Position numbers and translations under genes: made by a program
The notes under the pieces: generated by a model
What the model was told of the DNA's origin: nothing
Databases searched by the model: none
The model's input: only the letters and a program-made list of their open reading frames with translations
Source of the DNA: Steroidobacteraceae bacterium
GTDB taxonomy: Bacteria; Pseudomonadota; Gammaproteobacteria; Steroidobacterales; Steroidobacteraceae
Direction: 5' to 3'
DNA: 34,451 nt
Assembly: GCA_035571575.1 (NCBI GenBank)
Contig: DATNCK010000363.1
Coordinates: 1-34,451 of the forward strand
Shown here: positions 21,618 through 24,041 of the stretch, one piece after another
How the letters are laid out: each line of letters starts with the position of its first letter
How positions within the stretch are numbered: the stretch's first letter is position 1

Positions 21618-21650
21618 TTTCGATAAACGAAATAATATACTTCGGTGCGG

Positions 21651-21682
21651 TGCATCCCATGCCGCCGCCCGTGACGACTCAA
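21651..21682 (+). promoter_or_regulatory. Bipartite motif copy 1 (candidate ECF-type promoter of the membrane protein-sigma-antisigma operon)
   Basis: TGCATCC (21651-21657), 11 nt, CCGTGACGACTCAA (21669-21682). The motif ends 28 nt before ATG 21711. It is identical in both halves and in spacing to copy 2 at 22988-23019. Confidence 0.55.
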
Positions 21683-21710
21683 CTGCGTCCCGACCTCAAG
21701 AGAGACCGCG

Positions 21711-22124
21711 ATGACCGGCAAACTTCCCGAGATCTACTGGTACCTGTTCTGGATCGGCTTCGTGATCCTCGCGTTTCGCATGGCTTATCTGGGCGGCCGC
21801 TCCGGCCACGAGAAGCACATGAAGGCGCTCGACATCCTGAAGCTCTACGCCGAGAAGGGCGCAGAACCACCGCCCGCGATGATGGATCAGCTGGCCGCGC
21901 AGGTATTCCAGGAGGCGAATCCCAAGCGCGATGGCACCGGCGGTTTGATGACCACCTTCCTCAGCCTGCTGTTCATGGCTTGCGTGTCCTGGGGCGTCAG
22001 CGCCTGGCTCACCGCCAGGCAAGTCGCGCCCTGGGCTCCCATCGCGGCAACCGCGGCACTGGCGTTCTTTGGTATTGGCGCAGCCGGCTTCCTGATTGCA
22101 GCATTACTCAACCGCAAGAAATAG
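21711..22124 (+). CDS. Small three-TM membrane protein (hypothetical), first gene of the ECF operon
   Basis: 137-aa ORF. Hydrophobic segments: IYWYLFWIGFVILAFRMAYL, LMTTFLSLLFMACVSWGVSAWL and IAATAALAFFGIGAAGFLIAALL. A soluble loop (HEKHMKALDILKLYAEKGAEPPPAMMDQL) lies between the first two. The stop TAG at 22122-22124 abuts the sigma ATG at 22125. Confidence 0.7.
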   Translation: MTGKLPEIYWYLFWIGFVILAFRMAYLGGRSGHEKHMKALDILKLYAEKGAEPPPAMMDQLAAQVFQEANPKRDGTGGLMTTFLSLLFMACVSWGVSAWLTARQVAPWAPIAATAALAFFGIGAAGFLIAALLNRKK

Positions 22125-22643
22125 ATGGATGCGGAGGACGCAGCATTGCTCGCCGCAGTCCGCGACGGTTCGCAGCAGGCGTTCAACCTGCTGGTCGATC
22201 GTCATCAGCAGGCAGTGCGCGTGTTCCTGCGACGCCTGGTGGGCGCCAACGACGCCGACGATGTCGCGCAGGAAACATTTCTCGCGCTATGGACACAGGC
22301 TCGCATGTTTCGTGGCGGCTCACCCGTGCGCACCTGGCTGCTAGGCATCGCCTGGCGTAAAGCCAAGGACACGCAGCGAAGCTGGTTTCGCCGGCGTCGC
22401 CGCGACCAGGCCTGGCATGAAAGCAGGGATGATCACGAGGAATTCTCTGCTGACATGCAGCGGGCCATGGAACAGGCCATGGCTTCGCTGTCGCTGGATC
22501 AGCGCGCCGCCGTCACCTTGTGCCTTGCCTTCGGGCTGTCGCATGTCGAGGCCTCGGCGACCATGAATCTGCCACTGGGCACAGTGAAATCGCATGTGGC
22601 GCGTGGCCGTGAAAAGCTGCACGCCTTGCTGGGAGACGAGTGA
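22125..22643 (+). CDS. ECF-type RNA polymerase sigma-70 family factor
   Basis: 172-aa ORF. Region 2 is DDVAQETFLALW. Region 4 is LSLDQRAAVTLCLAFGLSHVEASATMNLPLGTVKSHVARGREKL. Confidence 0.9.
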   Translation: MDAEDAALLAAVRDGSQQAFNLLVDRHQQAVRVFLRRLVGANDADDVAQETFLALWTQARMFRGGSPVRTWLLGIAWRKAKDTQRSWFRRRRRDQAWHESRDDHEEFSADMQRAMEQAMASLSLDQRAAVTLCLAFGLSHVEASATMNLPLGTVKSHVARGREKLHALLGDE

Positions 22644-22960
22644 TGGAAGAACAGATGGACGAGAAGATCGGAAGACTGCTGCGCATGGATGCGCCTGCAG
22701 AGCGGGATCCATGGTTCCGCATCAGCTTGATCGAGCGCCGCGAAAGAATGCGTTACCAGCGGCGTCAACAGAAGTTGCTGGGTGTAGCGCTGCTCATCGC
22801 CCTGTTCATCGTTCTGCCGTTGATGCTGCGACCCACGCTCTTCAGCATGGAACTGCTGCGCAGCAGCCTCATCGCGCTCTTCGCGCTCGCGCTGATCGCA
22901 GCAGCGGTGCGTGCGGTGCATGGTCTGCGGCAGGCACTGCGTTGGCTGCGAGGTGTCTAG
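22643..22960 (+). CDS. Small two-TM membrane protein, candidate non-canonical anti-sigma factor
   Basis: ATG at 22643 shares its A with the sigma stop (TGATG at 22641-22645), and SD GGGAGA lies upstream. The protein has a charged N-terminal region of about 45 aa and then two hydrophobic helices. There is no HxxxCxxC zinc anti-sigma motif. The functional call rests on position only. Confidence 0.55.
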   Translation: MEEQMDEKIGRLLRMDAPAERDPWFRISLIERRERMRYQRRQQKLLGVALLIALFIVLPLMLRPTLFSMELLRSSLIALFALALIAAAVRAVHGLRQALRWLRGV

Positions 22961-22987
22961 GATCGGGCGCTGAAAATTCCGCCGCGC

Positions 22988-23019
22988 TGCATCCGGACGG
23001 CCGCACCGTGACGACTCAA
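22988..23019 (+). promoter_or_regulatory. Bipartite motif copy 2 (candidate ECF-type promoter of the TPR/CxxCH gene)
   Basis: TGCATCC (22988-22994), 11 nt, CCGTGACGACTCAA (23006-23019). Same halves and spacing as copy 1. Confidence 0.55.
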
Positions 23020-23060
23020 GTATGAAAGCGCAATCCGCGCACATACAGGAAGGGCTCGCC

Positions 23061-23936
23061 ATGGATTGTCGACAAGCCGCGGACATCCGCTGGGATCAGG
23101 TCTGCAAGCAGGTTTCAAAAGTCGCCACGCTGATCCTGATGTGGATCTTCGTGCTGCTGGCCGTGTTCAATACGGCATGGGCTCACGCGCCGGCACCGGC
23201 TGTGGGCGCCAAGCAAGTTCTCGAGCAATCGCGCCGGTACCAGTACCAGTTCCGCACCGGTGATGCGACCGTACTGGCTCCCTGGGTCGCGATGCTGGAA
23301 GAGGCGACGAAGGCTGAGCCAGGCAACGCCGACCTCTGGTACTGGCAGGGCTATGCCTACCTCGCGCTTGGCGCCCACTCACTGATGGCGCAGAAACCCG
23401 AAGACGCCATGGCTGCAATGAAGAAGGGCCCGGCGGCGCTGATGCGGGCGCTGAAACTCAATCCCGATCACGCCGAGGCGCTGTCGCAGCTGGGTGGCAT
23501 ACAGACCTTGCTGGGGCCCGTGCTGCAGTTGCCGGCCATGGCGCCGCGTGGTGTGGCGCAGATGAATCGTGCGGTGGAGCTGGCGCCCAATTCCATCCGT
23601 GTGCGGTTGATGCGCGCCTTCGCCGGTCCGAATCTGCCGCCCGAGCTGCGCAACACCGCCAACGAAGCCGAGGATCTGGACTATCTGATCGAGGTTGCGG
23701 AGTGGGGCACGGCTGGCGACTACATCCGCATCATGCGTGGCGATCTGAGTTTCGAAACCGGCCATCCGGATCTGGCACGTGCCATGTACCGCAGCGTTGA
23801 GGGTTCAGGCTCAGGTGCCTCAATGGATGCCAAAGCCCGACTCGCAGCGCTGGAGAAGGGCAGTGTGCCCCTGGCAGACATCAAGGCGCTGCGTACCTCG
23901 GCGGGCTCGCAGTGCGCCATGTGCCACGTAAAATAG
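23061..23936 (+). CDS. Secreted TPR-like protein with a C-terminal CxxCH motif
   Basis: I prefer ATG at 23061, preceded by AGGAAGGG (23048-23055). The track start at 23022 sits 2 nt after the promoter-like motif. There is a hydrophobic signal-like segment VATLILMWIFVLLAVFNTAWA. TPR-like helices include NADLWYWQGYAYLALG and ALKLNPDHAEALSQLGG. The protein ends SQCAMCHVK, with CAMCH at 23913-23927. Confidence 0.7.
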   Translation: MDCRQAADIRWDQVCKQVSKVATLILMWIFVLLAVFNTAWAHAPAPAVGAKQVLEQSRRYQYQFRTGDATVLAPWVAMLEEATKAEPGNADLWYWQGYAYLALGAHSLMAQKPEDAMAAMKKGPAALMRALKLNPDHAEALSQLGGIQTLLGPVLQLPAMAPRGVAQMNRAVELAPNSIRVRLMRAFAGPNLPPELRNTANEAEDLDYLIEVAEWGTAGDYIRIMRGDLSFETGHPDLARAMYRSVEGSGSGASMDAKARLAALEKGSVPLADIKALRTSAGSQCAMCHVK

Positions 23937-23986
23937 GGGGCGCAACACCCCGGTTGATGCAGCCCTCCCAGGGGTTTCAGCCAGGC

Positions 23987-24014
23987 TGACCTGCAGCCGT
24001 TCAGAGGCTATAAT
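23987..24014 (+). promoter_or_regulatory. Candidate sigma-70 promoter of gyrB
   Basis: TGACCT (23987-23992), 16-nt spacer, TATAAT (24009-24014). It lies 27 nt upstream of the gyrB ATG. Confidence 0.5.
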
Positions 24015-24041
24015 AATAATGAGCGGCGCAGGGGTTGATTC

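Follow-up and report, generated by a model that had tools for sequence, protein, structure and literature searches.

The 34,451-bp stretch of DNA analysed here, referred to as the window, belongs to contig DATNCK010000363.1 of a Steroidobacteraceae bacterium and carries a four-gene cassette between recF and gyrB, at the centre of which lies the gene for a sigma factor of the extracytoplasmic function (ECF) type. The sigma gene (gene 2) is preceded by a gene for a DUF6249-like membrane protein (gene 1) and followed by genes for a small protein with two predicted transmembrane (TM) helices (gene 3) and for an exported TPR-like protein ending in a CxxCH motif (gene 4, TPR-CxxCH). We propose, with a probability of about 0.72, that this is an autoregulated ECF cassette, in which the sigma factor would read two promoters, P1 and P2, and the small protein would act as its main tether. 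The gene content, the coupling of the genes, the bipartite motif in front of genes 1 and 4 and the co-occurrence of this motif with the sigma family across phyla were observed directly.

According to this model, the sigma factor would recognise the -35 element TGCATCC and, 13 nt further on, the -10 region G(C/T)G-N-CGACT(A/C). P1 would drive a translationally coupled operon encoding the DUF6249-like protein, the sigma factor and the small 2-TM protein, and P2 would drive the adjacent TPR-CxxCH gene. In the resting state, the sigma factor would be held at the inner membrane, most probably tethered mainly by the cytoplasmic N-terminal helix of the gene 3 protein; the DUF6249-like protein would be a third, obligatory subunit. 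The release of the sigma factor would lead to positive feedback on the operon and to expression of the TPR-CxxCH gene.

Organisation of the cassette

The genes recF (20562-21617) and gyrB (24042-26486) are separated by a gap of 2424 bp, which contains four open reading frames (ORFs) of 137, 172, 105 and 291 amino acids, all of them on the forward strand. Gene 1 extends from 21711 to 22124, the sigma gene from 22125 to 22643, gene 3 from 22643 to 22960 (alternative ORF limits 22640/22643-22960, corresponding to 105-106 amino acids) and gene 4 from 23061 to 23936. The stop codon of gene 1 is directly followed by the start codon of the sigma gene (TAG-ATG, 22122-22127), and the sigma gene and gene 3 overlap in the sequence TGATG (22641-22645). 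The gap, the four ORFs and the fused junctions had been described in the initial annotation of the window, and every coordinate was reproduced. Across the loci compared, the distance between the membrane protein gene and the sigma gene ranges from -4 to +30 nt, and the sigma gene always overlaps with the gene for the small protein. These tight junctions suggest coupled translation and the formation of a stoichiometric complex.

The promoter motif and its conservation

The sequence TGCATCC-N11-CCGTGACGACTCAA is found at 21651-21682 (P1) and, as an exact repeat on the same strand, at 22988-23019 (P2), and ends 28 and 41 nt upstream of the ATG codons at 21711 and 23061, respectively. At P1, the putative -35 element TGCATCC (21651-21657) and the -10 region GTGACGACTC (21671-21680) precede the operon of genes 1 to 3; at P2, the corresponding elements lie at 22988-22994 and 23008-23017 and precede the TPR gene. 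In most of the related loci, a strict search revealed TGCATCC-N17-CGAC on the coding strand, at a distance of around 500-700 bp before the sigma gene. In several phyla, orthologous sigma factors with identities as low as 46% are accompanied by the motif in the same position and orientation. From 54 instances, the consensus c-TGCATCC-R-N10-cgG(C/T)G-N-CGACT(A/C)-N5-yGAAA was derived, in which TGCATCC (-35) and G(C/T)G-N-CGACT(A/C) (-10 region) are the conserved elements; positions outside the search pattern show almost no variation either, e.g., the G-C-G directly preceding CGAC. The additional identity between the two window copies beyond these elements is lineage-specific.

A position weight matrix (PWM) was used to scan both strands of 691 kb of sequence comprising 83 distinct loci from Alpha- and Gammaproteobacteria, Gemmatimonadota and Acidobacteriota. 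A match was found before the first cassette gene in 73 of the 83 loci, there was no match on the minus strand, and only two weak off-target matches occurred. In the window, exactly two sites were recognised, P1 with 22.8 bits and P2 with 24.8 bits. As an independent test, a metagenome collection was scanned with the strict DNA consensus alone, which yielded 80 loci with 68 distinct motif instances. The next ORF encodes a member of the gene 1 membrane-protein family in 56 of these loci, usually followed by the genes for the sigma factor and the small protein, a DUF6249 protein in two and a TPR-CxxCH protein in one. A cassette gene thus lies directly downstream of the consensus in 59 of about 73 evaluable loci, whereas seven loci contain too little downstream sequence. 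The initial annotation had described a self-contained ECF module with its own bipartite promoter before both transcription units, and this reading is strongly supported by the cross-phylum conservation and the recovery of the cassette from the DNA consensus.

These data also bear on the idea that the two copies have arisen by chance or represent a dispersed repeat, e.g., a REP-like sequence or a remnant of a mobile element, without any link to gene starts. The module region is indeed G+C-rich and contains many short imperfect repeats; however, only two matches were found on both strands of the window even if three mismatches were allowed, and none in 100 dinucleotide-preserving shuffles, in line with the earlier claim that two copies with identical spacing are very unlikely to be due to chance. 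Position and orientation of the motif are kept in more than 130 independent loci, and neither flanking repeats nor a match to an Rfam family was found. The shuffles, the PWM conservation and the DNA-only scan effectively refute this explanation, whose probability we regard as negligible.

The motif could also be the operator of a conventional DNA-binding regulator, or it could be read by a sigma factor encoded elsewhere. The -35 element GCATCC also occurs together with another -10 element in paralogous ECF modules of the Caulobacterales, which shows that such sharing exists, and one locus (L086; loci from other genomes carry numbers beginning with L) has the motif before a TPR-CxxCH gene without an adjacent cognate sigma gene. 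However, the motif is bipartite and asymmetric with a fixed spacing and always points toward the downstream gene, and it therefore fits a promoter rather than an operator. In addition, motif and sigma family stay together across phyla despite changes in the flanking genes, and no regulator gene is conserved nearby. Further evidence against this alternative comes from the library of Rhodius et al. (2013), in which the promoter Pecf18_up1700, consisting of the -35 element TGCATCC followed by ...GGCGGCGGTAAT, is reported to be activated by ECF34_1384 (PMC3817407). The region-4 helix of this activator (PLGTVKSHARRG) closely matches that of the window sigma factor (PLGTVKSHVARG), PLGTVKSH-x-(A/R)RG being common to both. 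Taken together with the published assays, the identity to the -35 element of a tested ECF promoter and the similarity of the helices support the assumption that TGCATCC is the -35 element read by the window sigma factor. An operator or a distantly encoded sigma factor is considered very unlikely, and the motif is regarded here as the predicted promoter of the adjacent sigma factor, whose activity we infer from its conservation. A literature search for TGCATCC in connection with ECF sigma factors retrieved mostly primer sequences.

The paralogous modules were found in Caulobacterales loci (L011-L084, e.g., L050:4800-5901, and L088-L167), in which the triad of genes 1 to 3 is followed by genes for a paralogous DUF6249 protein of around 127 amino acids and a second ECF sigma factor of around 190 amino acids. 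At one locus (L088), a weak match to the small protein follows the second sigma gene. The motif upstream of the paralogous module reads TTACGAAAGTTTCA-N~10-(C/T)GCATC(C/T)-N~16-GCCTCTTGT-N3-CAGAAGG. The shared -35 element and the different -10 element (GCCTCTT) suggest that the paralogues are insulated from each other through the -10 element.

The sigma factor

The gene 2 product contains the Pfam domains Sigma70_r2 (residues 23-91, 3.6e-13) and Sigma70_r4_2 (residues 113-165, 1.3e-13) and no further domains. It scores 66.8 bits against the NCBIfam model TIGR02937 of the sigma70-ECF superfamily (cutoff 42.9), and no NCBIfam equivalog was found above its cutoff. The two-domain architecture within 172 amino acids agrees with the expected size of about 170-200 amino acids for ECF sigma factors, and the conserved bipartite motif, a putative promoter, is located before its own operon. 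Searches retrieved 2389 relatives, most of which are metagenomic. The nearest solved structure is RpoE of E. coli (1or7, E 9.5e-20), and CnrH is a further relative in the PDB (E 4e-14). In a comparison with the 31 reference ECF sigma factors of Rhodius et al., identities of around 30-34% were obtained and no group stands out, RpoE (ECF02) being the best match with 34%. An assignment to ECF22 was rejected, as the ECF22 references score near the bottom of the 31. In the ECF classification 2.0, group ECF220 combines transmembrane proteins at positions +1 and -1 with a C-terminal extension of the sigma factor; the window sigma factor has no such extension. The group to which it belongs is probably already catalogued in the ECF Hub.

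Residues P150-H157 and R160-R162 are invariant within the family. The linker between regions 2 and 4 (residues 85-94) contains the arginine-rich sequence W-F-R-R-R-R-R-D, in which R89 and R93 are invariant and W87, F88 and D94 nearly so; ECF linkers are usually variable. C133 in region 4 is also invariant in the alignment of 34 family members.

The membrane partners of the sigma factor

The small protein encoded by gene 3 is predicted to contain TM helices at residues 44-62 and 71-89, which are connected by a loop of around 10 residues and followed by a basic C-terminus. Its cytoplasmic N-terminus of around 43 amino acids is conserved (..L..L....P..RDP.F....V.E...RRR), forming a D-P-x-F ... 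R-R-R helix in which D22 and F25 are invariant or nearly so. All 82 loci examined encode a 2-TM protein of around 100 amino acids at position +1, the start of which overlaps with the sigma gene, and the gene 3 product is a likely, putative anti-sigma factor. The protein contains no cysteine and therefore lacks the HxxxCxxC zinc motif; it differs from the ZAS (class I) anti-sigma factors also in its N-terminus, which is around 43 amino acids long compared to a four-helix domain of around 90. The absence of the zinc motif had been noted before as an unusual feature. The observation itself is correct; however, non-zinc 2-TM proteins at position +1 are common. In the re-classification of ECF sigma factors, 114 of 157 groups have a putative anti-sigma factor at position +1, most of them without a known domain, and 2-TM anti-sigma factors occur in 14 groups (PMC7826278).

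In every locus examined, a homologue of gene 1 directly precedes the sigma gene. The layout of the protein comprises an aromatic N-terminal TM1, a cytoplasmic helix with the motif L-x-x-Y-A-E-K-G-x-E-P-P, a variable linker and two TM helices. No other stretch of the three partners is as conserved as this motif, in which L43, Y46, A47, K49, P53 and P54 are invariant. In the initial annotation, the protein was described as having three TM segments. Two of these are clear in a Kyte-Doolittle scan (threshold 1.6), and the third one is likely but not certain, since the aromatic-rich residues 8-26 reach an average of only around 1.5. In the AlphaFold2 (AF2) model, which is of moderate confidence (predicted local distance difference test, pLDDT, 70.9), helices comprise residues 7-48, 55-65, 75-102 and 108-134, and residues 8-26 thus lie within the first, long helix.

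Pfam yielded no match for the gene 1 protein, DUF6249 included (E <= 0.1), its 84 close homologues are all annotated as hypothetical without a recorded Pfam domain, and a PDB profile search with the family gave nothing meaningful. However, a comparison of the gene 1 family with DUF6249 proteins from the same loci using hhalign resulted in a probability of 97.8% (E 8.4e-13, 113 columns), and a remote hit of the family profile (P0401) passes the Pfam cutoff for DUF6249 (PF19762). Both share TM1, a basic stretch, a helix, which ends in (E/D)KGQ-x-(L/P)-P-P-E in DUF6249, and two TM helices, whereas the window protein itself falls below the Pfam model. They also share their location: DUF6249 genes precede ECF sigma genes in more than 60 loci, including the paralogous modules of the Caulobacterales, and in Bacteroides a DUF6249 gene has a sigma factor gene and a DUF5056 gene as neighbours, in the order DUF5056-DUF6249-sigma (bioRxiv 10.1101/2025.05.12.653583). 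The only other bacterial mention of DUF6249 found in the literature, in a P. gingivalis cluster, is likewise incidental. Based on these similarities, the gene 1 product is a divergent relative of DUF6249 and a constant partner of the sigma factor. A membrane protein gene upstream of the sigma gene, initially regarded as unusual, is not peculiar to this locus and turned out to be obligatory across the family. DUF6249 is itself an uncharacterised family and the comparison does not yield a mechanism. In a further locus (L157), an ORF around 50 nt downstream of the motif starts like the N-terminus of the gene 1 family (MSGDVPEIYWYVFW...) and continues as a different multi-TM protein without a Pfam match; this ORF could have arisen by fusion or encode a divergent relative.

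It was also considered that the promoters and the regulon are as proposed, but that the gene 1 product is the anti-sigma factor, with its YAEKGxEPP helix binding the sigma factor, or one half of a split anti-sigma factor, and that the gene 3 protein serves as an accessory, stabiliser or sensor. The link to the sigma factor is as universal for the gene 1 product as for the small protein, the cytoplasmic motif of the former is the more conserved one, the paralogous modules also begin with a DUF6249 protein, and the Bacteroides DUF6249 genes adjoin sigma factor genes. However, anti-sigma factors are typically encoded at position +1 with coupled translation (PMC7826278), which is the position of the small protein with its overlapping start at every locus, and the AF2 model of the gene 1 protein is of moderate quality only. 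We consider this arrangement unlikely.

Several observations weigh against the model in which the gene 3 protein is the main tether and P1 and P2 are the promoters of the cassette. The DUF6249-like protein, whose cytoplasmic helix is strongly conserved as well, could be the one that actually binds the sigma factor. The gene 3 family matches no known anti-sigma domain in Pfam scans of 26 members or in a PDB profile search, the only marginal Pfam match, DUF5056 at 0.039 in one member, being noise; moreover, its cytoplasmic part of around 43 amino acids is shorter than a classical anti-sigma domain. At the DNA level, 10 of the 83 loci have no PWM match, and the window copies score below most loci, with GTG instead of GCG and CTC instead of CTA. 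Finally, no terminator was found between gene 3 and P2, and P2 therefore probably supplements read-through from P1 rather than defining a separate unit. For the model with gene 3 as tether, we infer the promoter activity, the anti-sigma role, the membrane topology and the nature of the signal from sequence data.

A role of the cassette in envelope signalling is plausible; neither membrane partner appears to have an appreciable periplasmic domain, and the trigger is therefore more likely to be membrane-intrinsic, located at the cytoplasmic face or transmitted by another protein than to be a periplasmic ligand.

P2 and the TPR-CxxCH protein

A counterpart of P2 precedes the fourth gene in seven other loci, which belong to the closer relatives (L001, L003, L004, L006, L007, L085 and L087). 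The gene behind it encodes a TPR-CxxCH protein in the window and in L001, L004, L085 and L087, a 333-amino-acid protein without a Pfam match in L003, a DUF6152 protein in L006 and a DUF2306 protein in L007. The putative promoter P2 thus appears to drive a target that varies between lineages.

The gene 4 protein matches Pfam TPR_17 above the cutoff (3.4e-10), and its AF2 model (pLDDT 88.9) shows an all-alpha, TPR-like solenoid of 13 helices following the signal segment and ending in a disordered tail, i.e., the helix-repeat solenoid typical of TPR proteins. Foldseek searches against the PDB returned only generic TPR proteins (probability 1.00), and no function can be deduced from the fold. The N-terminus contains a hydrophobic segment (residues 18-36) followed by AWA (AxA), and the protein ends in C-A-M-C-H-V-K. 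Of this CAMCH motif (residues 285-289, codons 23913-23927), C285, C288 and H289 are retained by all 24 homologues compared, which come from Proteobacteria and Acidobacteriia. The TPR-CxxCH family has around 97 members in the database searched, and all 24 aligned members end in C-x-(M/L)-C-H plus two to three residues. For a haem c attachment motif, a position at the C-terminus is unusual. The presence of CxxCH in a predicted exported protein is a hallmark of c-type cytochromes, whereas no cytochrome c fold was detected: the protein has no cytochrome Pfam domain, is modelled as a TPR solenoid and retrieves TPR proteins only. Since the CxxCH motif is invariant in an exported protein, gene 4 probably encodes a protein that binds haem covalently. 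Proteobacterial members of the family share an N-terminal MDC before the hydrophobic segment. The ATG at 23022 was rejected as the start of gene 4, because only a few bases separate it from the -10 element and because the homologues align from MDC (ATG 23061).

The metagenome scan also retrieved loci in which the motif precedes genes outside the cassette (L138, L142, L144, L118, L148, L162, L135, L151 and L101). The ORFs behind the motif encode secreted BAAT/DLH-type hydrolases (two independent loci), CcdC-like DUF1453 membrane proteins (two loci), peptides similar to aa3 oxidase subunit IV (two loci), a redoxin-cytochrome c fusion, another alpha/beta hydrolase and a secreted protein of 255 amino acids without a Pfam match. 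In Maricaulis loci, NnrU follows the triad. The genes outside the cassette are possible further members of the regulon. A haem- or respiration-related theme among the targets is suggestive; the sample is small and around four of the non-cassette matches look like chance.

Taking this theme further, it may be speculated that the DUF6249-like protein and the small 2-TM protein form a two-subunit, membrane-embedded anti-sigma complex without an extracytoplasmic sensor, which reads a membrane-intrinsic or respiratory-chain cue. The idea of such a cue is based on the repeated occurrence of haem- or cytochrome-related genes behind the same promoter, namely TPR-CxxCH, redoxin-cytochrome c, CcdC-like DUF1453, the aa3 subunit-IV-like peptide and NnrU. 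This proposal is tentative, and we regard it as rather improbable in this specific form.

Distribution and age of the cassette

In bacteria, dnaA, dnaN, recF and gyrB are usually arranged in this order. Relative to this arrangement, the cassette can be described as inserted, as had been suggested initially; however, the insertion is not recent and the cassette is old in this lineage: module and flanks do not differ in G+C content, no flanking repeats are present and a relative carries the cassette at the same site. Specifically, neither direct or inverted repeats nor a tRNA gene or Rfam element was found flanking the module in the window. A comparison of the recF-gyrB region in relatives, as proposed in the initial annotation, revealed that the cassette is located between recF and gyrB as in the window in L001/L002, whose sigma factor is 81% identical, whereas it lies in unrelated neighbourhoods in the more distant loci L004 (71% sigma identity) and L003 (64%). 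The full four-gene cassette including the TPR gene was also found in an Acidobacteriia metagenome-assembled genome (MAG) and in another context (L085, L087). A scan using one genome per species identified 80 loci with sigma identities of 46-64%, mostly from Caulobacterales; one Gemmatimonadales, one gammaproteobacterial and one Vicinamibacterales MAG are also included. In L003, from a Hyphomonadaceae MAG, the cassette lies directly downstream of two YCII genes and of another sigma factor gene, which has a DUF6596 extension (L003:4174-5442).

Neighbouring features of the window

A sigma-70-like site, CTGACC-N17-TATAAT, is located at 23986-24014 on the forward strand and matches the consensus at 10 of 12 positions, in agreement with the initial assignment of a separate promoter to gyrB. 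This promoter-like site forms the boundary of the module and lies outside it. Downstream of gyrB (26558-28959), the window contains ORFs on the same strand at the place where L001 has genes for an MscS-like channel and two MgtE_N-domain proteins; from their positions, synteny with this 81%-identity relative is suggested to extend beyond the cassette. In the upstream direction, the dnaA reading frame (16767-19160) continues without a stop codon far beyond the likely start (MPELWTKIL..., near 17800), and the mechanically called ORF of 797 amino acids overstates the gene; DnaA of L001 has 452 amino acids. Further upstream, two ORFs of 1680 and 1357 amino acids overlap on opposite strands (2486-7528, minus, and 2501-6574, plus), and only one of them can be real.

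Implications

If the model is confirmed, a broad, uncharacterised family of ECF sigma factors in Proteobacteria, Acidobacteriota and Gemmatimonadota would gain a promoter logo, a minimal regulon and a three-protein core, and the orphan Pfam family DUF6249 would gain its first functional context as a partner of ECF sigma factors. If the two-subunit complex were real, the widespread DUF6249 family would represent a general ECF co-regulator. The defined pair of -35 and -10 elements, together with a natural paralogue sharing only the -35 element, could serve as an orthogonal expression part. The general understanding of ECF signalling is not changed by the cassette.

Comparison with known ECF systems

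Neither a DUF6249-like protein as a constant member of an ECF operon nor a TPR-CxxCH protein as the target of an ECF sigma factor is described in the literature searched. The closest promoter resemblance is to the ECF18 promoter and ECF34_1384, with which the window family shares the identical -35 element TGCATCC, invariant in the family, and a two-domain ECF sigma factor that is autoregulated or, in the window, predicted to be so. However, ECF18_4438 and ECF34_1384 are each only 30% identical to the window sigma factor, and the -10 elements differ (CGGTAAT in the ECF18 promoter, CGACT(A/C) in the window family). The ECF18 partner is a single-pass, RskA-like anti-sigma factor of around 270 amino acids without a DUF6249-like gene, whereas the partner here is a 105-amino-acid 2-TM protein without a Pfam match. 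An assignment to ECF18, which ranks 22nd of 31 in the family-profile comparison, was rejected based on the identity, this rank and the missing RskA-like partner.

The CnrYXH system of Cupriavidus metallidurans has two sigma-dependent promoters, one in front of the regulatory operon and the other in front of the adjacent target. This system (CnrH-CnrY, 4CXF; ECF291, PMC7826278) resembles the cassette in its small membrane proteins encoded upstream of the sigma gene and in an anti-sigma factor, putative in the window, whose cytoplasmic sigma-binding segment is very short and which lacks a zinc motif. However, the partners show no sequence similarity, and CnrX is a periplasmic metal sensor, whereas the cassette has no periplasmic sensor domain. 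The gene order also differs (Y-X-H compared to membrane protein, sigma factor and small protein), and the target of the Cnr system is a metal efflux pump instead of a TPR-CxxCH protein.

With RpoE, the window sigma factor shares the two-domain architecture and, according to the model, an autoregulated operon with an anti-sigma gene at position +1. However, the RpoE promoter (GGAACTT-N16-TCAAA) is different, and RseA is a single-pass anti-sigma factor with a periplasmic domain, which acts together with RseB. The logic of the cassette thus resembles that of many ECF modules, and the features initially regarded as unusual are either common among them or a signature of this family.

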